Shown here: positions 357 through 23,860 of the stretch, one piece after another | Position numbering within the stretch: the stretch's first letter is position 1 | How the letters are laid out: each line of letters starts with the position of its first letter | Source of the DNA: a virus | Reading direction: 5' to 3' (one strand) | Virus genome (UHGV): UHGV-0142770 | Length of the DNA stretch: 39,194 bases | Position numbers and translations under genes: made by a program | The notes under the pieces: generated by a model | Told to the model about the DNA's origin: nothing | Databases searched by the model: none | Seen by the model: the letters and a program-made list of their open reading frames with translations, nothing else

Positions 357-839
357 CTATCTTGTCAGGGTGTCATACTGTTTTTCGCAGACTCTTCCGG
401 CTTCGGCTGCCCGGTCAGCATACTCTGCCAGTTGTCTGTTTCTCTCGAGAGATTTGCTGAGCACGTCGGCAAGCAAAACTCCGGTGTCTGCGGCTGACGT
501 CCCAGCGCCGACAATGGCGTTATACTGCCTGAGCTGCTCACGGATGGCAAAGAGTTGTTGCTGCAACCTGCCAGCGCGAGCGGCAGCATCAAGAGCATCA
601 TTGCGCGCCTGGTCGATTCTCTGCTGCGCTTCACGTTCATTGGTCACTTTCTCCTGTTCGTAGTACTGACGAACTTTGTCTTCTTCGTCTTTGCGGTCTT
701 CTTCCGCCTGCGCATACCCGGCATCGTACTGGCGACTGCCGTGTATATTCCAGGCAACCACTCCGACGATGAACAGAGCAGCAAGCATCACCACGATAAT
801 CAGTTGTTTCCAATATGCTTTTACGAATGCCCAGATCAT
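357..839 (-). CDS. Rz-like i-spanin (inner-membrane spanin)
   Basis: 160 aa with N-terminal hydrophobic anchor ([18 protein letters not shown]) and a charged coiled-coil body. Start overlaps the endolysin stop (836/839); contains an embedded +1-frame lipoprotein ORF. Confidence 0.75.
365..601 (-). CDS. Rz1-like o-spanin (outer-membrane lipoprotein) embedded in Rz
   Basis: ORF 365..640 lies wholly inside Rz in another frame. Internal Met pair leads into [16 protein letters not shown] with lipobox LAGC; Pro-rich mature part. Start taken at first internal ATG (601). Confidence 0.55.
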   Translation of the reverse strand: MMLLMLPLALAGCSNNSLPSVSSSGSITPLSALGRQPQTPEFCLPTCSANLSRETDNWQSMLTGQPKPEESAKNSMTP

Positions 840-4952: not shown

Positions 4953-5045
4953 ATTTACATCGCACTCCTCTTGTGCCATAGTAATCGGGCACTGGCAAAA
5001 TCCAGTGCCGGGATTGGTCTCCCGGATTACTACAGAGGCACATAT

Positions 5046-5065
5046 GCCGCATAAGCGGTTTTTTT
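5046..5065 (+). terminator. Weak intrinsic terminator/attenuator between small ORF and ant
   Basis: Short GC stem (CCGC-ATAA-GCGG) followed by T7 run 5059-5065, preceded by two longer hairpins at 4988-5009 and 5008-5025. Confidence 0.4.
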
Positions 5066-5219
5066 ATGTGTAAAGCGCACCTATTCTATGGTGGGCTGTG
5101 TGGGGGCACCGAAAGGTGCGCCGGGTTCCTTTGTAGCCGGTAAGACCAACTCTGCACAGTTCACCACCATCTGATTGGTCTCAGCGGTGGTGATTAACCT
5201 AACTACAAAGGTGATCGCC

Positions 5220-5912
5220 ATGAATACCAAACCTTCCATCTTTTCCTTTGAGTCATCCTGCCAGATCCGTATGTTCATGATTGACGGAGAACCTTGGTTT
5301 GTCACCAAAGATGTGTGCAATGCTTTGAATATTGATGTTACACAAGCGAGAAAACTTGATAAAAAAGGCTGGAACAAAAAGGGGCTGTATTCAATACAGA
5401 CCCCTGGTGGAATACAAGAACTATCCATCGTTTCAGAATCAGGTCTCTACATCCTTATTCTGCGTTGCAAAGAGGCAATGACTGAGGGAACGAGAGCATT
5501 CAGATTTCTTGAATGGGTTACAGGCGAAGTACTTCCTCAGATCCGCCGCACCGGAAGTTACATTAAAAACTCGCTCCCGCAGGAAGAACGCATAAAGATG
5601 GTTGCCGACCAGGTAGCCAACGCCACGGCGTCAGCAGTAATGCAGGCGATGAAGATAGAGAACAAAACCTACAGTGCCCCACTGAAGCCCGGCTACCGCA
5701 GTCTGATTCATTCTCCGTCTGGTGTTCTCGGCCTGACGGAGAACTCACTGCTGATGAATCTGCTGAACCGGTTACAGGAAGACGGGCACGACGTATCGGG
5801 CGCGGCGGCGGAGCTGACCACCATGTTTTGCTACATCGTTGGTGTGAGCAAATGCCTGCGTGATATCCAGACACACGCGGAGTACATCAACGACAAAGCA
5901 GGGTTCTTCTGA
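5220..5912 (+). CDS. ant: Antirepressor (Bro-N domain, Ant-like)
   Basis: ATG 5220 with AAGGTGA 5 nt upstream. N-terminal FSFESSCQIRMFMIDGEPWFVTKDVCNALNI matches the Bro-N fold of prophage antirepressors. Downstream of a LexA box. Confidence 0.8.
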   Translation: MNTKPSIFSFESSCQIRMFMIDGEPWFVTKDVCNALNIDVTQARKLDKKGWNKKGLYSIQTPGGIQELSIVSESGLYILILRCKEAMTEGTRAFRFLEWVTGEVLPQIRRTGSYIKNSLPQEERIKMVADQVANATASAVMQAMKIENKTYSAPLKPGYRSLIHSPSGVLGLTENSLLMNLLNRLQEDGHDVSGAAAELTTMFCYIVGVSKCLRDIQTHAEYINDKAGFF

Positions 5913-6080
5913 CGGCGGCGGCACAGGGATGTGCCTTTAAATAATTCTGTACAGATTGCAGGTGAATAGCTTACTATTACCTCACGGGTGATCCATAGCG
6001 ATTAGGCACCGATACAGGAGGAGCCCACATGAGAAAATTTGACGAGTACGAAGGCGTTTAACATTCGGATAGTTTAATGA

Positions 6081-6120: not shown

Positions 6121-6660
6121 GTGTTAAGTGAAGAAATGCAATTTGCCATGGCTGTGGCTCAAATCGTAAGTGCAGTCGCGGTTTCGCTTGGCTTGTTCAT
6201 AGCTATCGCTACTATTATTTATAATGTAAATACAGCGAGAAAAGTACACACTTCAGTATTCCTTGGTGAAAGCAGGTTTGATGTAGATTATAAGAAAGGC
6301 CTATCTACTATGCGCCGCATTCACGAATCGAACAAATCATTCCGCTCTTATATGTATCCAAGCAATGGGCAGGCTGATCTTACGGATGAAGAAAAGACAG
6401 AGAAGAGAGAAATAATTTACTGTCTAGGTTTCTACGAACGCATGGCTGTGAGCGTGAAGCGGAAAACTTATGATGAGACCATGATTAAGGAAGTATTTTA
6501 CAGCTCCGTTGTAAATAACTATCAGATTGCGCTACCTCTTATACAAGCCATTAGAGAAAAAGAAAACATAAACACATATTTTAAAGAATATGAATGGTTG
6601 GCCACACGATGGAAGGATTGCCCATTGAAGGATAAATCCCCGTGGTACAAGTTTTGGTAA
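6121..6660 (+). CDS. AT-rich moron: membrane-anchored protein of unknown function (candidate exclusion/defence or conversion gene)
   Basis: 179 aa; GTG start 6121 with GGAGA 6 nt upstream (alternative ATG 6136). One N-terminal TM helix (AVAQIVSAVAVSLGLFIAIATIIY), Lys/Glu-rich body. Own terminator; AT-richer than flanks by eye. Confidence 0.6.
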   Translation: MLSEEMQFAMAVAQIVSAVAVSLGLFIAIATIIYNVNTARKVHTSVFLGESRFDVDYKKGLSTMRRIHESNKSFRSYMYPSNGQADLTDEEKTEKREIIYCLGFYERMAVSVKRKTYDETMIKEVFYSSVVNNYQIALPLIQAIREKENINTYFKEYEWLATRWKDCPLKDKSPWYKFW

Positions 6661-6682
6661 GCCAGCGCTGCGGGCTTTTTTT
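6660..6682 (+). terminator. Intrinsic terminator after the membrane moron gene
   Basis: GC-rich imperfect stem (AGCCAGCGCTGCGGGCT) followed by T7 run 6676-6682, immediately after stop 6658-6660. Confidence 0.6.
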
Positions 6683-6754
6683 GTGGACGAAACAAAAGTC
6701 AGTGCTACACTCATTGACGCCACATTGAGGTGGCTTATAGATGGAAATTTCACA

Positions 6755-6916
6755 ATGAAAAAAGCATTTGCTGCACTGTTCGTTTTGTTGTCTCTGGTAG
6801 CTTCAACTCAGGCCTTTGCCGGTCGTTGTCAGCACGACAGCGATACTGCCGCTGACGGCTCCCGCTGCGGTGGGCGTTCTGCGGATTCCCGCCCGGGTGG
6901 CGGTGGCATTCGTTAA
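6755..6916 (+). CDS. Small secreted Gly/Cys-containing peptide (hypothetical)
   Basis: Internal ATG 6755 gives MKKAFAALFVLLSLVASTQAFA (signal peptide with AFA cleavage motif) plus a ~31-aa mature part with two Cys and a poly-Gly tail. Short and unrecognised, so tentative. Confidence 0.35.
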   Translation: MKKAFAALFVLLSLVASTQAFAGRCQHDSDTAADGSRCGGRSADSRPGGGGIR

Positions 6917-6939
6917 AAACAAGGCCGCGAAAGCGGCCT
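6915..6939 (-). terminator. Intrinsic terminator ending the minus-strand virion operon (after the lipoprotein gene)
   Basis: 7-bp stem AGGCCGC/GCGGCCT with GAAA tetraloop (6922-6939); on the minus strand a U-run follows (A-run 6915-6920 on +). Confidence 0.6.
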
Positions 6940-6954
6940 GTGACATGTCACGAC

Positions 6955-7368
6955 TTATAAAGATGACTGATATTTTACAACTCTGTTCATGGCATCTTTT
7001 TTCACCGAGCTGATATCAGTTCTTATTTTGGCTTCGTCATTACTGCTTATCATGCTATTAATTTTTTGCACTGACATGCCGTTTCTTTCAGCCATTGCAC
7101 ATACAGCAGCATCGTATGAAGAACTCGCTGCGATGGATATCACCTTGTTACACTCAAACACAGCACCTTCAGCAATATCAGATGCCGATGAGGCTGGCTT
7201 GGTATAAGTCTTGACGTAGTGATCAATACAACTATCCTTCGCCGTCTTGGCAAGAGAAAAATCCATTTTAACTTTGTCGCAATATGCCTTATCAACACCG
7301 TCATAAACATCATAGGATGTCGAGCAAGCGGATATCAAAAATACCGATAACAGCAATAATTCCTTCAT
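6955..7368 (-). CDS. Lipoprotein, last gene of the virion operon (candidate superinfection-exclusion factor)
   Basis: 137 aa; N-terminus MKELLLLSVFLISAC has signal peptide plus lipobox (ISAC); AT-rich; four further Cys. Confidence 0.6.
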   Translation of the reverse strand: MKELLLLSVFLISACSTSYDVYDGVDKAYCDKVKMDFSLAKTAKDSCIDHYVKTYTKPASSASDIAEGAVFECNKVISIAASSSYDAAVCAMAERNGMSVQKINSMISSNDEAKIRTDISSVKKDAMNRVVKYQSSL

Positions 7369-7377
7369 TGTTGTTCC

Positions 7378-9852
7378 TTATTGCGGAGTGACATCCTGAG
7401 GTCGCCACCAGTATGTCTGGTTAAACTCTTTCTTCGAACGTTGCTCCATTTTACGCAAATAGCCTGGTGAAAAATACTCCTGCATCTGATTAAAGATCAT
7501 GTGATCGAGAGCCGCCTTCAAGTACCAGAGATTCGCACCAGGCATCAAACCTTTCCCAAGCTTAACCAGATCACCACCAGTCTGCTCATTCTTCCCTTCC
7601 ACAGCATTTAACGGTATGCCCTGAGCAATCTTCACTACGTCATCAACCAGACCAGCTACCGGGCCAAGCATCGACGCTAGTGCGCCGCTCCCGTACCTGG
7701 TGTGGTCAGAGAAAAGAAAATCACCATACAACCCTGCCCCACCACCTTTTAAAAATGCATTTATCCAGAATTTAACCATGTTGTCACCGGTCATTTCTTT
7801 TGGATTTCTCCCATTAATAAGATCAGTAATCTGCATGGAAAGAGCACCAAGCATGGTTGTGCTTGCTAAAAACGTTGCTATATATGCCGCACGCCCACCA
7901 GCAGACGGCATCCCCATAGCTCTATGCCAGTGACGCATAACTACCGAGATAGGGAACGATTTAAACAGGAAAACACTTCTCGTTAATTCACCTTTCCATG
8001 TTCCACGCTGAAGACCAGACCCTACGAACATCTGTTCACGTGCGCCCGGTGTAATAACAGCCATATCAACTTCTTCAGTTACGGCACCGAGCAGTTTACG
8101 CATTGCCTCAAATTTCACACGTTCAGGCTCACCAAGATGTTTAACTGCTGAATCAGGGATACGCATAATGCTTTCCGGTGTCAGCATCGTATTATTACCG
8201 TTCCCCCAGTCCTCCTGTTGCGCCAGCTTCCATACGCTCCAGTCTGTGTCAGTAATCCCTTTGCTTTTCAGGATACGAAAATCAGAGTCATCGAGGCTAC
8301 GAAGGTCTGGTGTCCGTGACACTACTTCTCCCAGGCTTCCCATCATGGTTACGCCATAAGCGCGCTTGTGCGCATCTGACCATGCTGTAAGCCCACTGGC
8401 ACGCATTACCGCCGTTGCCGCCCAACGAGACACTGACGGCCCCATATTATCCATCGCCCAGCGGTTAACGCTGCCAAGTAGAGATTCCATCGCCAGACCA
8501 GCGCGGCGCGCCCGCGCAAGTTCTGTACGGTTCGTTGGGTCCATAGCTTCAAGCTGGTTGCGGAATAACTGGTTCATTGGAAGGTTGGTAACCTTCGCAG
8601 ACAGATACATGGTTCCAAGATCAGAGAACGATGACAGCAACGCGGATCCGAGCCTGCTGGCAACCAGCCAGTTTCTGATATTGTCAGACCAGCGCGCGAT
8701 GTGAGGATTCGCAACAGGCTGTGTCTTTCCGGAAATAAAGTTGTACAGGTTCTCTGTTTTGTTCGCCAGCCGCTCGACGCTACCGGTTTTACTCGGGTTA
8801 GCTGTTGCCGTTTCTGCCTTCACCTGATCAAGAAGGGAACGGAAAACATGATCGGGGTTTGGACCATATGTTTCCACCAAAGCAATATCTTTACTGATCC
8901 CTTCCAGGTGACCGACCATGATTTCCCATAGAGAGCGATCGCCATAAAGTTGCTGATATTGCAGATAGGAATCTGCATCTTTGAAATGTATCTGTCGTGA
9001 TGCATTACCACGGTTAGCACGTGCGCCGGAAATTCGCATTCCGGTATCAGTAAGCTTATTCAGCCCACCAGTAGCGATCGTGTTATAAGCCTCTCCAAGA
9101 AATGCAGACAACTCGACATCGTTCATCAGTTGTCCATCGGCTCGGGTATAATATTTGCGATCCAGCTTACCTATAACATCGCTAACCCATTTATCTTTTG
9201 ATACCGCCCCAACCTTTTCCATAGAATGATGTTGAGGGATCCCCCAGTTTTCGAGATAGCCAATGTCCCCACCAGCATCATTAAACCGGCGGCGCAGTAG
9301 CTCTGTCACTTCTCTCCACGCCTTAGCACCTTTTCTTGCTTTAGCATTGCCAGTATTTTGCCCTCGCATTTCATATACCAGGTCACGCACGCCCGCTTCA
9401 TCTTCAAACAGGCCAAAAAAGCGAGGATCAACTGCTTCGAATGCCTCCTGCAATTGACTCAATGCATAATCACGAGTGGCTTTTGTTCTGGACTCAACAG
9501 AGAGGAAATTCGATTTACCGTCTGCATTAAAAGCAATAGTACGGTTAAGAGCGCCGAGTTTCCCATCAGCCCCTTGATAGCTATTGATAAATTTATCCAA
9601 TCTCTGACGTGCGGCTATAGTGAGGGCCACACGACGTTTATTTAATGCCGCTTCTCGCTGTAATTCTTCAGATGCCAATTGTGCTGCACGATATAGCCGC
9701 TCTGATTCGGAAAGTTGTCTCCACGACATCGGGTCATCACGAGCAATGGAGCGCATATTTCGATAAATGCGGTCTTCAATATTCTGTATTTCTCGCGCCG
9801 TTAACGTGCGCTGCGCCGCCTGCTGGACCGCTTGTATACATTCCTGTCTCAT
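7378..9852 (-). CDS. Large internal virion/ejection protein (T7 gp16-class by position)
   Basis: 824 aa, last of three consecutive large ORFs between tail tubular genes and operon end; no enzymatic motif recognised. Confidence 0.55.
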   Translation of the reverse strand: MRQECIQAVQQAAQRTLTAREIQNIEDRIYRNMRSIARDDPMSWRQLSESERLYRAAQLASEELQREAALNKRRVALTIAARQRLDKFINSYQGADGKLGALNRTIAFNADGKSNFLSVESRTKATRDYALSQLQEAFEAVDPRFFGLFEDEAGVRDLVYEMRGQNTGNAKARKGAKAWREVTELLRRRFNDAGGDIGYLENWGIPQHHSMEKVGAVSKDKWVSDVIGKLDRKYYTRADGQLMNDVELSAFLGEAYNTIATGGLNKLTDTGMRISGARANRGNASRQIHFKDADSYLQYQQLYGDRSLWEIMVGHLEGISKDIALVETYGPNPDHVFRSLLDQVKAETATANPSKTGSVERLANKTENLYNFISGKTQPVANPHIARWSDNIRNWLVASRLGSALLSSFSDLGTMYLSAKVTNLPMNQLFRNQLEAMDPTNRTELARARRAGLAMESLLGSVNRWAMDNMGPSVSRWAATAVMRASGLTAWSDAHKRAYGVTMMGSLGEVVSRTPDLRSLDDSDFRILKSKGITDTDWSVWKLAQQEDWGNGNNTMLTPESIMRIPDSAVKHLGEPERVKFEAMRKLLGAVTEEVDMAVITPGAREQMFVGSGLQRGTWKGELTRSVFLFKSFPISVVMRHWHRAMGMPSAGGRAAYIATFLASTTMLGALSMQITDLINGRNPKEMTGDNMVKFWINAFLKGGGAGLYGDFLFSDHTRYGSGALASMLGPVAGLVDDVVKIAQGIPLNAVEGKNEQTGGDLVKLGKGLMPGANLWYLKAALDHMIFNQMQEYFSPGYLRKMEQRSKKEFNQTYWWRPQDVTPQ

Positions 9853-9857
9853 TTAAT

Positions 9858-11660
9858 TTAACCTCTCAAGAAACACGCCACAGCGACATCAAACAGGCTG
9901 GAATCCTGTATTGCCTGCTCACTTTCCCTGTTCGCTTCATCCAGTACTTCACGCGCGCTGCGCGATTGTGGATTACCATCATCATCCAGCACGGTGATTA
10001 TCATGTCAGGTGATTCAAGCAGCGAGTCTTCAGCTATGCGCAGATCAATATCTCCTGCCTGATCCGCCATCATTTTTTGTTCTGCCTGTTGCAATATTTT
10101 ATCAGGCTCAAAAGGAGCTACTTCGTCTGGCGTCCTGACCTCTGCTGTTTTATAGAATGAAACAGCCTGAGCATTAAGTTCACTTTCTGCCTGCTGTCTC
10201 CGAGCCAGTTCTGCTCGAGCTTCAAAAAACTGACCGCCAGGCTCATGCGGTGCCAACGCGTTACGAGAAAATTCCAGGCGTTCTTGTGCCTGCCGGATTC
10301 GTTGGTCAATATCGCGAAGTCTGGCCTGTTTATCTGATCGAGCACGAGATAAAGCCTTACCGCTACCGGCTGAATCTTCTGCAAGAATTTGTGCGCGCTG
10401 TTCAGTGAGATTTTCAATAATTCGTTGGCTATTAGCGATTTCAGACTGGTAAACCTGTCTATCGCCACGCGGCAAAAGCTGCGCGGCCTGTTCTTCAAGC
10501 AACCGATTTTCTATAGCGCGCGCCGTTACTCCATCATCTACAGATGACAGAGCCTCATTAACTGCCTGAGAAAGCAGACTCTTGCGCCCAGGAATTTCAC
10601 TGAAAGATGCAGACTCAACAATGCTGGCAACGTCTACAGGTCTCCCCTGGCTAACATCAGACATGGCTTTTCGCAGAGCCTGAATGTGCGAATTACGCGA
10701 AAGCACGTTGATCGGCACGCCGGGAGCAATATCAATTTCAGCATGATGAGCGGCATTCGCCGCCAGTGCAGCATCGATATCAACTGGTGAAAAATTTGGT
10801 GCGCTTGTAGACTCGCCGCGAGAGTTAATAAATCTGCCGACACCACCAAACGCCACCCCAAGAACAGCATCAATAGCAATTGCCTGTCGATCCAACACAT
10901 CATACTGGTTAGCCATTTCGCTATAGCCACCATCACGAAGCGTTTTTGCAGTAAGCCCACGCTGTGCCATACCGAACGCAATATTTGTACCTGCGGCATA
11001 GGCAATATCTGGCGTTGCACGTACTGCTGTTGCTGCGGCGCGTCGCACTGAACTTTCACCCGTCCGCGCAAGCTGAGCCGCCACACCTTCCGCCAGCGCA
11101 CCACCAGCACGTAACCCGAGGCTCATAGGGATCAGTGTTCCGGCACCAGCAGTAATACCCTGCACTAATCCCGCTTCCTGCGCCGTCCTGAAATCAACAC
11201 CCTGTGCTGTCAGCCGTTCAAACTCAGAAAAACCCTGTAGAGAAGTTACCGCCGCAGCACCTCCGACCGGACCACCGAGCGTTGTACCGACAACAGCCTG
11301 CCCGCCCATATCGAACAACCCATGAAGGACCTGCCCGGCGGTTCCGGTTGTCGCGGCATCAGGCGTCAGCCGCTTAACCTGCTGCTCTGCTAGTTTTCTC
11401 TGCTCAGCAATGTATGAAACTGAAGTGTCATTGAGCGAGGTGTTTTCGTTAACAAACTGAGCTATCGGGGATACGATTTTATCCATCCCTGCCCATAGCA
11501 ACTGGTCTGGCTTTGCCACCAGCCCGGAGTACAAACCAGACAATGCCGCTCCTACAGCATTGTCGAAAAAACCAACATCGCTGTTAAAGCCAGCTGGATT
11601 TGATGCTGCTTCGTCAAGCTGCTGATTCTGGTTTACTGGATTAAGGCCAAAGTAACTCAT
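9858..11660 (-). CDS. Internal virion/ejection protein (Ala/Gly-rich)
   Basis: 600 aa, low-complexity Ala/Gly-rich segments with coiled-coil C-terminus; translationally coupled with the upstream gene (ATGA overlap at 11657-11660). Confidence 0.55.
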   Translation of the reverse strand: MSYFGLNPVNQNQQLDEAASNPAGFNSDVGFFDNAVGAALSGLYSGLVAKPDQLLWAGMDKIVSPIAQFVNENTSLNDTSVSYIAEQRKLAEQQVKRLTPDAATTGTAGQVLHGLFDMGGQAVVGTTLGGPVGGAAAVTSLQGFSEFERLTAQGVDFRTAQEAGLVQGITAGAGTLIPMSLGLRAGGALAEGVAAQLARTGESSVRRAAATAVRATPDIAYAAGTNIAFGMAQRGLTAKTLRDGGYSEMANQYDVLDRQAIAIDAVLGVAFGGVGRFINSRGESTSAPNFSPVDIDAALAANAAHHAEIDIAPGVPINVLSRNSHIQALRKAMSDVSQGRPVDVASIVESASFSEIPGRKSLLSQAVNEALSSVDDGVTARAIENRLLEEQAAQLLPRGDRQVYQSEIANSQRIIENLTEQRAQILAEDSAGSGKALSRARSDKQARLRDIDQRIRQAQERLEFSRNALAPHEPGGQFFEARAELARRQQAESELNAQAVSFYKTAEVRTPDEVAPFEPDKILQQAEQKMMADQAGDIDLRIAEDSLLESPDMIITVLDDDGNPQSRSAREVLDEANRESEQAIQDSSLFDVAVACFLRG

Positions 11661-14170
11661 TGCGGAATATCTCCGGAGAATCTCTGACGCTTCTGTGTCA
11701 GATTAAGAACAACGGGAGAACCATCATCTTTCAGCAGATAACCAGTACCAAGTTTCACCAGGTACTGACTATCGCCGTAACTTTGCAAACCATACTGACC
11801 AGGCGGTGTTTTTATCCCGGAGCCGACAACTTGTTCATTCCAAGCCTGATTAACCTGCTTATCGAATTGCTCTGCAGACATTCCCCACGGCAAAAGGACA
11901 TTCCCCATTCCGTTATAGTCATGCACGCCACCTGTAGCTACGTTAACAGCCTGTTTCCAGACATCATTGTCAATTTCGCCTGATACCACGCCTTTTTTCG
12001 CCATCACACCAGCGTAATAATCCTTTGCGATCTCGTATGCCATTGATGCCCCCTGAGCGTCACCAGCAAATGCATCCTTCACCATGTCAGAAAACTCAAG
12101 GCGAAGATCAGCATCTTTAGGCATCGGAATACCTTTCGCATCATCAGTACCTTTACGAGCCGCCGCGCCAGCAAGAATTGTCTGCGCAGCGGTTTCAGGA
12201 GACACGGAAACATCCGGATTAAACCAGTTTTTTTCTGCCAAAATACCACCAGGCTTATCCATCAGTATCCCGGCAACGGCAGCAGATGGAGCGTTGGTAC
12301 TGATCTGCTGTAGTGCTGACATATACACCTGCCCACCACCAGTGCTCTGCCTGATGGTATCGAGATATGCTGCCTGTTGGGAAACTGGAGCATCACGAAA
12401 GAAAACACCGATCTGATTGGCCTCGTCTTTGGAAAAGAACGTCAGTGGAGTGCCATATGACTTAGCAAGGTCACTGACCTGAGCGGCACGCAAGGCAACG
12501 CTCTGTCCAAAGTTATCCTTATTGCTCATGTCGATAGGCTTTGCCTGTCCGGAGGCAAGAGAGAACTGCACAGGATCCGACTGCCGCTGCTTTATCACCT
12601 GATTTGCAGCCGAAACAACGTTGTCATAAAGAGCTGCGCGTGCCGCATAGCCCTCCCCTGTATCACCAGTATCCGGGCGTAATTGCTCAACATATGCTGT
12701 AATGCTGCTTGTCGGCATGTTGCGGAAAGAGCCTATATACTGTCCGGCGATCTGCGTATTCTTAAACTCGGTATATCGCAGGTTTCCTTCTCTGACTCCA
12801 TAAGCTGCAATAAAATCAGCCTCACCAGGTGGGTTAGGAAATTCAACGCCACGCATATACGCAGCTGTCGCATCGCGAACTTGGCTGTCAATCATCGTTT
12901 TATATTCAGCCTGCTGCTGCCGACGCAGTTGATCCGCCTGTCGCATAAAACTTGCCTGCGCCTCAGGAGATGCCGCATCGAATGCTGCATTACCGGTATA
13001 GCGTTTGGTGTTGGTTGGAATTGTTGATAAACCAAGTGCTGCACTGACACCAGCAGTTAACTGCTGATCACTGTATGGCTGGCTACCGTTCTCATGATGG
13101 ATAATGGCTGCACAAAGCGCCTTCAGGGTATCAGGATTTGATGCATCGAGAGGCTCATCAGCAGAAACGCCAAGTTGTTCGCACACTGCTTTGATATACG
13201 ACATAGTGTCATTTTTATCAGTAGGCGGTGCCCAGCGATTAATTATCTCGCTGACGGTATCAATACCCTGCCGCTGATACGACATCAGGTTCCGCCCTAA
13301 TGCACGAATCCCGTGTTCAGGTGTTTCGAATTTAGCAAATCTACCATCATCACCGGTCTGGCCTACCCACGGATTAGTTTTGCTGTATTCGAGATTTCCG
13401 GGGTTATTGTTGCGTATGCCACGGACACGCTCGGAAGAGCCACTATCTGTTACAGCACGGCGAGCTCCAGCAGCAGTATCACTTAACTCGCCATTACTTT
13501 GGATGAATGCGGTCGCATTGTTTGCCGACCACTGGGACAATGCTGCATCAGCAACCTTCTCTTTAAACTCGATTTTCTTGGTCTGTATTTGCTCGTCGCT
13601 CCAGCCATGTGCAGCACCGTACTCCTCAATTTGCTGGAAAGTTTGCTTATTAGCCAATACGTATGCGGCATTGTCGCCATACAATGCTGCGGCATTTTTA
13701 CCATTGTTCAGCAGCGTCGCCTGAAACTGACCTTCTTCGTAGGCATTAATTTGCCCTATCTCGTGCCGCCCGGCCTGCGTAGTGAACTGAATGCGCTGCT
13801 GCTGCGCCTGCTGCATGAAAGCATTACGAGCCTGTTCATCCGGCAGCGACATAGCCAGTTGTTCGACCTGAGCATCAAACTGCTGCGTATACTCATGGCC
13901 TTTTCCAATAGCATTTTTCCCTTTCAGGTTAAGCAAACCTGTTTCAGGGTTATTCAGCAGATCACTGCTTATCTGACTGAGGTTAAGAGATGCCTCCTGA
14001 GCCAGAGCGATATTGGCACGCTGTTTTGCCTGCCCCAAAACATCAATTGCCTCTGTCCCTGCCCGAACAAAAGCATCACCAATACCTGGCTGAGAAAACG
14101 TCTGCAAGCCTGCTGACTGAACTCCACGGCTCTCAACCTGGCGTCCGGATACTGTTGGTACGACTGGCAT
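11657..14170 (-). CDS. Internal virion protein with putative peptidoglycan-hydrolase region (gp15/gp16-class)
   Basis: ATG at 14170 with GGAGG 6 nt upstream, overlapping the upstream stop. Contains GIRNNNPGNLEY...FAKFETPEHGIRALGRNL, which I recall from virion-associated cell-wall hydrolases. Confidence 0.6.
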   Translation of the reverse strand: MPVVPTVSGRQVESRGVQSAGLQTFSQPGIGDAFVRAGTEAIDVLGQAKQRANIALAQEASLNLSQISSDLLNNPETGLLNLKGKNAIGKGHEYTQQFDAQVEQLAMSLPDEQARNAFMQQAQQQRIQFTTQAGRHEIGQINAYEEGQFQATLLNNGKNAAALYGDNAAYVLANKQTFQQIEEYGAAHGWSDEQIQTKKIEFKEKVADAALSQWSANNATAFIQSNGELSDTAAGARRAVTDSGSSERVRGIRNNNPGNLEYSKTNPWVGQTGDDGRFAKFETPEHGIRALGRNLMSYQRQGIDTVSEIINRWAPPTDKNDTMSYIKAVCEQLGVSADEPLDASNPDTLKALCAAIIHHENGSQPYSDQQLTAGVSAALGLSTIPTNTKRYTGNAAFDAASPEAQASFMRQADQLRRQQQAEYKTMIDSQVRDATAAYMRGVEFPNPPGEADFIAAYGVREGNLRYTEFKNTQIAGQYIGSFRNMPTSSITAYVEQLRPDTGDTGEGYAARAALYDNVVSAANQVIKQRQSDPVQFSLASGQAKPIDMSNKDNFGQSVALRAAQVSDLAKSYGTPLTFFSKDEANQIGVFFRDAPVSQQAAYLDTIRQSTGGGQVYMSALQQISTNAPSAAVAGILMDKPGGILAEKNWFNPDVSVSPETAAQTILAGAAARKGTDDAKGIPMPKDADLRLEFSDMVKDAFAGDAQGASMAYEIAKDYYAGVMAKKGVVSGEIDNDVWKQAVNVATGGVHDYNGMGNVLLPWGMSAEQFDKQVNQAWNEQVVGSGIKTPPGQYGLQSYGDSQYLVKLGTGYLLKDDGSPVVLNLTQKRQRFSGDIPQ

Positions 14171-14715
14171 TATAATCCTCCGGGTAATCTGGTTCCTGCT
14201 GCTGCCCCGATTGGCGCAGGGGTGCTTTGAGTAAACGGACTCCACGTCCCACCAAACATCTGGTACGCACCGTATGCCTTCAGAGGCGCAGTGAGCAATG
14301 TTGTTGCTGCTCCCACATTCCCCTGTTTACGGGCTGAACTGGCTTCTGCTTTATAGTTGGCAGCCTGAACCTGATAACCGTAAGCCTCGCGTTGCGCGTT
14401 ATTCACCGTCGTCAGCGAATCAAGAGCGCCAAACTGAGCAGTGTCACCAAATATATCCAGCGCGTTACCGGTAGATAAATCAGCGCCGGTAGCCCCCATT
14501 GTCGCCGCCTGTGTACCAAGCCGCTGTCGGGTCTCTCTGCGCCGTTGCTCAGCTTCAGCGTTACCCCTGTTTATTGCATCATTTGCCTGAGCTGTGGCTA
14601 TATCTGCGTTCGCTTCTGCAACCTTCGAGGCATACTTTCCCTGTTGGTACTGGGTGTATGCCTGAATGCCACTCATGGCGAGCATTGCGCCACCAGCAAT
14701 AACCGGATCGCACAT
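14170..14715 (-). CDS. Internal virion protein (T7 gp14-like by size and position)
   Basis: 181 aa, Ala/Gln-rich, between the gp13-like and gp15-like ORFs. Confidence 0.45.
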   Translation of the reverse strand: MCDPVIAGGAMLAMSGIQAYTQYQQGKYASKVAEANADIATAQANDAINRGNAEAEQRRRETRQRLGTQAATMGATGADLSTGNALDIFGDTAQFGALDSLTTVNNAQREAYGYQVQAANYKAEASSARKQGNVGAATTLLTAPLKAYGAYQMFGGTWSPFTQSTPAPIGAAAGTRLPGGL

Positions 14716-23783: not shown

Positions 23784-23860
23784 GTGGCATTAGCTCAGTT
23801 GGACAGAGCAACCGCCTTCTAAGCGGTTGGTCGCAGGTTCGAATCCTGCATGCCACGCCA
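23784..23860 (+). tRNA. tRNA-Arg (anticodon UCU), phage-encoded
   Basis: 77 nt cloverleaf folded by hand: acceptor GTGGCAT/ATGCCAC, D-arm GCTC...GAGC, anticodon stem ACCGC/GCGGT with loop CTTCTAA (TCT at 23818-23820), T-arm GCAGG-TTCGAAT-CCTGC, discriminator G and encoded CCA. Closely resembles enterobacterial argU. Confidence 0.9.

Follow-up and report, generated by a model that had tools for sequence, protein, structure and literature searches.

A hypervariable slot for predicted envelope proteins after the ejection genes of an epsilon15-like Escherichia coli prophage, with a candidate superinfection-exclusion lipoprotein and an independent peptide gene

The window analysed here is the whole 39,194-nucleotide (nt) stretch of virus genome UHGV-0142770, which is an epsilon15-like (Uetakevirus) prophage of Escherichia coli. 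It contains two small convergent genes, one coding for a lipoprotein of 137 amino acids (aa) and the other for a pre-peptide of 53 aa. The lipoprotein gene occupies a hypervariable slot after the ejection genes, and the slot takes at least five unrelated cassettes, all of which are envelope-targeted (membrane or periplasmic) as judged from their sequences. The two genes are independent accessory genes that lie tail to tail merely through the convergence of two transcription blocks. For the lipoprotein we tentatively propose a role as a superinfection-exclusion factor acting after adsorption, at DNA delivery, a role that we regard as possible rather than probable. The two genes and their immediate surroundings are listed below, with positions counted in the window.

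7378–9852 (−): 824-aa ejection-type virion protein; phrog_684 'virion structural protein'; homologue of phiV10 gp20 and epsilon15 gp17
6955–7368 (−): lipoprotein, 137 aa; WP_078175524.1, phrog_8691; RefSeq CDS
6922–6939 (−), hairpin: late-operon intrinsic terminator, AGGCCGCTTTCGCGGCCT then TGTTTTT; T-run on the minus strand only
6755–6916 (+): pre-peptide, 53 aa; WP_000708858.1 'transmembrane anchored protein', phrog_14503; RefSeq CDS
6661–6754 (+): upstream region moving with the peptide gene; megablast matches of other phages begin at ~6657–6660

Both open reading frames (ORFs) lie exactly where an earlier, sequence-only reading of this DNA had placed them, and its statement that the lipoprotein gene closes the virion/ejection operon also holds. 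The gene begins 9 nt past the stop codon of the 824-aa gene, has the ribosome-binding site AAGGAA, and is the last one before the late terminator. The 824-aa gene is the last of the large virion genes, and the variable slot, 6955–7377 in the window, begins where this gene stops. We compared 80 IMG/VR loci, each with an 824-aa (gp17-like) protein at least 92% identical to that of the window. The slot holds a 98-aa protein with three transmembrane (TM) segments in 34 of the 80 loci, and a 46-aa 2-TM protein, as phiV10 gp21, in 13 loci by motif and ~21 by terminator spacing. The window's lipoprotein is present in 10 of the loci, a second, unrelated 126-aa lipoprotein in 8, and a secreted 103-aa protein in 1. 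PHROGs assigns no function to any of these slot cassettes. In 62 of the 80 loci the late terminator follows the slot gene, and the phiV10 record marks the same element as a (late) terminator; on the plus strand, 6922–6939 forms a hairpin without a T-run.

The position is also kept by distant homologues of the lipoprotein. In a Cedecea prophage (55% identity), the homologue is encoded directly downstream of the ejection genes, before a convergent antirepressor block and the tailspike gene, and a homologue on a metagenomic epsilon15-like contig (27% identity) is found in the same place, again before the antirepressor block and tailspike. A Klebsiella prophage homologue occupies the same slot and has the same four Cys, with a plain signal peptide. 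In the window, the gene order is ejection genes, slot, antirepressor region and tailspike.

Both ORFs are real genes and did not arise by chance. For the lipoprotein, this is supported by the lipobox match, the Cys residues kept in distant homologues and a confident AlphaFold model. A regex check finds the lipobox LISAC with Cys15 and Ser at +2, so the ISAC call of the sequence-only reading was correct. The match also satisfies a PROSITE PS51257-type rule (at least one K or R among residues 1–7, a hydrophobic stretch free of charges, [LIVMFWSTAG](2)-[LIVMFYSTAGCQ]-[AGS]-C, Cys at 15–35), as do the homologues from E. coli, Cedecea, Providencia and plasmids, and the Klebsiella branch fails it. 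The lipoprotein is therefore predicted to be lipid-modified at Cys15, and to be sorted by Lol to the outer membrane, because the +2 residue is Ser and not Asp (the established +2 rule). The AlphaFold secondary structure and a reading of the sequence show no membrane-spanning segment past the signal peptide. The gene has a GC content of 39.4% and the window a mean of 48.7%, a difference (39% versus 49%) that fits horizontal acquisition.

The mature domain consists of 123 aa with twin Cx16C motifs (C30/C47 and C73/C90), and homologues down to 26% identity retain the four further Cys as two Cx16C motifs. The AlphaFold model is all-helical, with a mean predicted local distance difference test (pLDDT) score of 87.5 and ~95 across the mature domain. 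In this model, helix 1 carries C30 and C47, while C73 and C90 are in helix 3 or immediately precede it. From this model, we infer that disulfides C30–C90 and C47–C73 (DsbA-type) would staple helix 1 to helix 3. In both pairs the residue numbers sum to 120, which is expected for two disulfides stapling antiparallel helices. The CHCH-type twin CxnC hairpins likewise have two CxnC motifs on antiparallel helices, but their spacing is Cx9C rather than Cx16C, and the window protein is bacterial and predicted to be periplasmic; the resemblance is architectural only and depends on the pairing deduced above.

Searches of Pfam, PHROGs, NCBIfam and PADLOC with the lipoprotein gave no match but phrog_8691, which is uninformative, and otherwise noise short of the threshold (Linker_histone, 1.1e-3, below the cutoff; T4_Spackle, 0.82, over the signal peptide only). 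Fold and PDB sequence-profile searches matched no solved or viral predicted structure, and tblastn of the INPHARED phages gave no match. A single-sequence HMMER search of 1.84 billion representatives yielded 8 matches, 4 of them of use, and a profile search of 5.8 billion proteins yielded 27 clusters, so the family is tiny. Literature searches on the prophage 'transmembrane anchored protein', Uetakevirus superinfection and an epsilon15 exclusion lipoprotein found no functional study of either gene. As a separate matter, the lipoprotein was considered as an o-spanin and rejected, as there is a separate o-spanin in Rz and sister phages lack the slot gene; its sole PHROG spanin match (E=0.13) covers the signal peptide alone.

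Some members of this family are found outside phages. A Providencia homologue (29% identity) is encoded in a 2.3-kb block common to different integrative islands, and the block adjoins Gabija-like (OLD-type ATPase and UvrD-type helicase), type I/III restriction, SIR2 and helicase genes. The 2.4-kb Col3M plasmids found in Providencia and Proteus have just two annotated genes, one of which codes for a 142-aa homologue (28% identity). A toxin partner was sought on the Col3M plasmids and in the Providencia island block, and none was found. These homologues suggest that the lipoprotein works without virion genes and benefits its carrier. The lipoprotein is neither a virion nor a lysis component.

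We also note some details of these elements. The Providencia block (loci L009–L011, 7095–9368) is bordered by insertion sequence fragments and its copies in the L009 island and in the L010/L011 islands are 98.6–98.8% identical, although the sequences around it are otherwise different; L010 and L011 share a longer stretch of 7.7 kb. On plasmids, the homologous gene is located at 263–691 of NZ_CP135992.1 (2428 bp) and at 365–793 of NZ_CP066834.1 (4044 bp), the latter representing the 4-kb plasmids of Proteus, and metagenomic contigs contain a variant plasmid with a pentapeptide-repeat (Qnr-like) gene.

Three observations lead us to favour superinfection exclusion: the variability of the slot, a layout like that of P22 sieA, and homologues next to defence genes. 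Exclusion had already been suggested by the sequence-only reading, and on these grounds it is plausible, though by a route other than the one then suggested, as discussed below. In the mechanism we have in mind, the lipoprotein, whose gene is the final cistron of the late ejection-protein operon, would be exported by Sec, lipidated at Cys15 and delivered by the Lol pathway to the outer membrane, where it would be anchored in the inner leaflet. There it would expose a 123-aa periplasmic helical bundle, in which two disulfides would staple helix 1 to helix 3. This helical domain may interfere with the envelope-spanning DNA channel of incoming ejection proteins, or with an envelope component needed there, and the lipoprotein would then be an outer-membrane counterpart of P22 SieA.

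In P22, sieA is located between gene 16 (ejection protein, E-protein) and gene 9 (tailspike), and its product, which resides in the inner membrane, blocks DNA delivery through the gp20/gp16 conduit (PMC10883804). Among the exclusion proteins of short-tailed phages, SieA alone has so far had its location and likely target worked out (PMC10883804). The window's lipoprotein resembles it as a predicted envelope protein of a short-tailed temperate phage, with a gene that lies near an antirepressor (immI-type) region and also between ejection-protein and tailspike genes. SieA, however, is a multi-pass inner-membrane protein, whereas the window protein is predicted to be an outer-membrane lipoprotein; the two share no sequence similarity, no family match was obtained, and no homology to SieA types A–C was found. 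A second precedent is Ltp, which has a helical extracytoplasmic domain and blocks DNA injection, not adsorption; it is reported to have tandem helix-turn-helix-like repeats and to target the tape measure protein. The window protein is likewise a prophage lipoprotein with a predicted helical extracytoplasmic domain, and the two differ in that Ltp is from a Gram-positive system and gives no fold match to the window lipoprotein. Ltp is the prophage lipoprotein of Streptococcus phage TP-J34 (PMC3952083). Taken together, the lipoprotein is like SieA by position and proposed action, like Llp, Cor and Ltp by chemistry, and a member of none of these groups by sequence or fold.

Several points weigh against superinfection exclusion. 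The cassette type does not covary with the ejection-protein sequence, which is at least 92% identical across all 80 loci, so a specific ejection-protein target is not indicated. A single branch of homologues, at 29% identity, accounts for the association with defence islands. A scan of ~500 nt upstream of the lipoprotein gene revealed no sigma-70-like promoter, which leaves expression in the lysogen, needed for classical prophage exclusion, unsupported; expression may be confined to the late phase of the lytic cycle. In Klebsiella, the slot neighbour with a Rap1a domain points to a different kind of envelope protection, and this neighbour, together with carriage on Col plasmids, fits orphan toxin immunity about as well.

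Orphan immunity would mean that the periplasmic domain neutralises a peptidoglycan hydrolase of a type VI secretion system (T6SS) or a bacteriocin, protecting the lysogen or plasmid host from competitors. We consider this unlikely, although several observations suit it. Many T6SS immunity proteins are small, helical, disulfide-bonded and periplasmic, as the lipoprotein is predicted to be, and the family travels on minimal Col-type plasmids and mobile islands. The Klebsiella homologue, moreover, adjoins a protein with a Rap1a domain (PF18602), a T6SS immunity domain. Against this reading, no effector or bacteriocin gene was found adjacent in any context examined, no Pfam or fold match links the lipoprotein to any immunity family, and the tiny family (27 clusters in 5.8 billion proteins) shows no members in cognate pairs. 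The comparison with Rap1a/Tai4-type T6SS immunity proteins thus has two sides: they too are small, helical and periplasmic, and in Klebsiella a Rap1a gene adjoins the homologue within the slot, but the window lipoprotein has no PF18602 match, no fold match and no effector gene nearby. The Rap1a protein itself (PF18602, E 1.6e-12) is encoded by epsilon15-like prophages of Klebsiella, at 7711–8094 (−) of locus L016 and at 5550–5933 of locus L021.

Receptor masking of the Llp/Cor type, the comparison drawn in the sequence-only reading, would have the lipoprotein bind an outer-membrane (secondary) receptor and block irreversible adsorption, either protecting lysogens or sparing progeny from loss on debris at lysis. 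Llp of T5 and Cor of phi80 and N15 are outer-membrane lipoproteins whose phage genes lie close to the virion genes, and the window protein, a predicted outer-membrane lipoprotein with a periplasmic domain, is likewise encoded at the end of the virion genes. Late co-transcription would suit a T5-Llp-like role in lytic growth, and the homologues outside phages could equally mask a host receptor. The proposed likeness to Llp and Cor did not hold up, however: searches of Pfam, PHROGs and PADLOC and PDB sequence and fold searches gave no sequence or fold relationship, and no homology to either protein was found. Llp and Cor give surface exclusion and act on FhuA for siphoviruses. Epsilon15-like phages, by contrast, adsorb to O-antigen via the tailspike and, to our knowledge, no protein receptor has been established for them. 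Related prophages achieve exclusion at the level of adsorption by O-antigen acetyltransferases, and the 2-TM and 3-TM slot cassettes are of an inner-membrane type that cannot mask an outer-membrane receptor. We therefore think that masking is improbable.

Another lysogenic-conversion or lytic envelope role, such as serum or complement resistance (lambda Bor, TraT), envelope stress or lysis timing, is more doubtful still. The placement of the lipoprotein gene in transcription with the late genes would allow such a role, and so would its accessory character (low GC, presence in 22 of 5426 genomes, several kinds of mobile element). The lipoprotein has no similarity to Bor, TraT, spanins or antiholins, however, and the phage has a complete lysis cassette of its own, including an o-spanin. 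The lytic cycle does not require the lipoprotein gene, since it is absent from sister phages whose lysis and virion genes are the same. The o-spanin ORF of the window (365–640 (−), 91 aa, lipobox LALAGC) is nested in a DUF2514/Rz-type i-spanin gene at 357–839 (−), which makes the lysis cassette complete.

The peptide gene and the lipoprotein gene converge, with a 38-nt spacer between their stop codons that contains the hairpin 6922–6939. The peptide gene was found in 450 of 5426 complete E. coli genomes (~8%) and the lipoprotein gene in 22, of which 15 also have the peptide gene and 7 do not. Among the 80 IMG/VR loci, the peptide gene is present in 33 and accompanies every major cassette type (the window's lipoprotein, 5/10; the 3-TM protein, 19/34; the second lipoprotein, 5/8; the 2-TM protein, 2/13). 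It is also present in prophages that are not epsilon15-like, for instance in Pectobacterium, in a prophage that has the genes for a long tail; a further copy, in an unrelated E. coli element, follows a lysis cassette and a RelB/YafQ pair. The sequence-only reading had described a convergent pair; the convergent arrangement stands, but not the pairing, as the genes assort independently. That the peptide and the lipoprotein form a two-component module, for example ligand and anchor, is suggested only by their adjacency and convergent layout in the window, is contradicted by the distribution just given, and is very improbable.

The pre-peptide reads MKKAFAALFVLLSLVASTQAFA before and GRCQHDSDTAADGSRCGGRSADSRPGGGGIR after the predicted cleavage site. 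Residues 1–22 form a Sec signal peptide, MKK / AFAALFVLLSLVA / STQAFA, with cleavage between AFA and G, and the ORF has the basic n-region, the hydrophobic h-region and the small −3/−1 residues expected of such signals. Export to the envelope is thus predicted for both products, as had been suggested earlier, by the Sec signal of the peptide and the lipobox of the lipoprotein. The database name 'transmembrane anchored protein' looks inaccurate, because the sole hydrophobic segment is the cleavable signal peptide. The mature peptide would be 31 aa long, hydrophilic and rich in Gly, Arg, Asp and Ser, with two Cys. After Sec export and cleavage behind AFA, it would be oxidised to a periplasmic peptide with one disulfide loop; Cys25 and Cys38 are predicted to close this acidic loop of 12 residues. 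AlphaFold models the signal helix only, and the mature 31 residues have pLDDT values of 42–64 and no ordered structure. Such a low-confidence model fits a small disulfide loop (C25–C38) with a flexible Gly-rich tail.

We aligned 21 peptide homologues from Escherichia, Klebsiella, Cronobacter, Salmonella, Pectobacterium, Dickeya and others. The alignment has 17 invariant columns, every one in the mature part, which follows the pattern C-x-H-D-x-D-x-A-x-D-G-S-R-C-G-G-R-S-A-D-S-R-P-G-G. The signal peptide diverges across the homologues and retains its hydrophobicity and an AxA-type cleavage site. When the 25-codon core is compared with the Pectobacterium and Klebsiella copies, synonymous divergence (pS) is 0.6–0.78 with merely 0–3 residue changes, which indicates very strong purifying selection on the peptide. 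A mature part that is near-invariant across Enterobacterales and phage types implies, as far as sequence conservation can tell, a conserved envelope target or ligand in the host. No Pfam family matched at E<=1, including heat-stable enterotoxins, Excalibur and EF-hand, and a PDB sequence search with the peptide profile gave nothing. The DxxxDGxxC motif presumably recalls Excalibur, a likeness without a Pfam match. The gene has a GC content of 57.4%, and its mature part 68.9%. The earlier description of both genes as AT-rich is thus right for the lipoprotein gene and wrong for the peptide gene.

The homologue alignment indicates that the peptide gene starts at the ATG at 6755. A GTG-initiated 77-aa extension of the ORF (6683–6916 (+)) matches phrog_3117, a 77-aa profile, and some database entries for the peptide are probably over-extended. 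The peptide unit is best stated, from sequence comparison, as a self-contained mobile unit in which the DNA is conserved from the terminator of the upstream gene on. The region 6661–6754 contains a hairpin and T-run at ~6662–6680, after the DUF4760 gene, and weak −35/−10-like hexamers, which were read by eye and are below the promoter-scan threshold. In addition, there is a 5-bp hairpin at 6720–6735 (+), GCCAC-N6-GTGGC, ~20 nt before the peptide start codon. Of 7 diverse copies, 6 retain this hairpin, with 88.6% of cells paired and 2 compensatory changes, and seven sequences are weak evidence. An Rfam search of 6400–7500 gave no match.

The significance of the lipoprotein and the peptide is a gene-context hypothesis. 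If the slot cassettes are exclusion factors, they would show that short-tailed phages can be blocked at the outer membrane or periplasm, and they would be natural interchangeable inhibitors with which to probe the ejection-protein channels of T7/epsilon15-type phages. Prophages of this kind are frequent in E. coli and Klebsiella from the clinic, where they could restrict the use of phages in therapy. The peptide is of note for being very widespread, with hardly any change in sequence between E. coli and Pectobacterium. It is doubtful that all parts hold together, namely a Uetakevirus hotspot of exchangeable exclusion cassettes, a new outer-membrane family that jams channels, and the peptide as a periplasmic effector. 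If they did, the twin-Cx16C family would be unrelated in fold to known exclusion proteins, would be common to prophages, defence islands and minimal Col3M plasmids, and would jam a T7-like ejection channel from the periplasmic side; the 31-aa disulfide-loop peptide would represent a new periplasmic effector that is encoded by prophages and acts on a conserved target in the host. The leads are the hypervariable envelope-protein slot, the twin-Cx16C family in islands and plasmids, and the near-invariant peptide, and the two genes themselves are ordinary-looking accessory genes.

Positions 6600–7500 are 99.3% identical to the prophage at yfgI in strain Ecol_AZ146, and parts of this region also match phages phiv142-3, TL-2011b and phiV10 (megablast). 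The long virion operon on the minus strand, and the antirepressor on the plus strand, comprise the following further genes.

14170–14715 (−): T7-gp14-family core gene (T7_gp14 match, 2.5e-7), in the long virion operon
11657–14245 (−): 862-aa gene, first of three large genes after the T7-gp14-family gene
9858–11660 (−): 600-aa gene, second of these three large genes
5175–5912 (+): BRO-N antirepressor ORF

The plus-strand block that ends in the peptide gene also carries the BRO-N antirepressor and the DUF4760 gene. Positions 4989–5171 and the BRO-N ORF are a P1/P7-type immI module between the ejection genes and the tailspike. Two Rfam matches at gathering level were found here, isrK at 4989–5065 (+) with 74.7 bits and the C4 antisense RNA at 5084–5171 (+) with 78.6 bits; together they immediately precede the BRO-N ORF. 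The DUF4760 gene (6121–6660 (+); PF15956, 8e-31) has a GC content of 39% and a hairpin and T-run terminator of its own. Sister phages swap it for a YafO toxin, DUF2335 or other genes, which makes this a second variable accessory position. A tRNA gene is located within the prophage at 23784–23857 (+) (Rfam RF00005, 73.3 bits).

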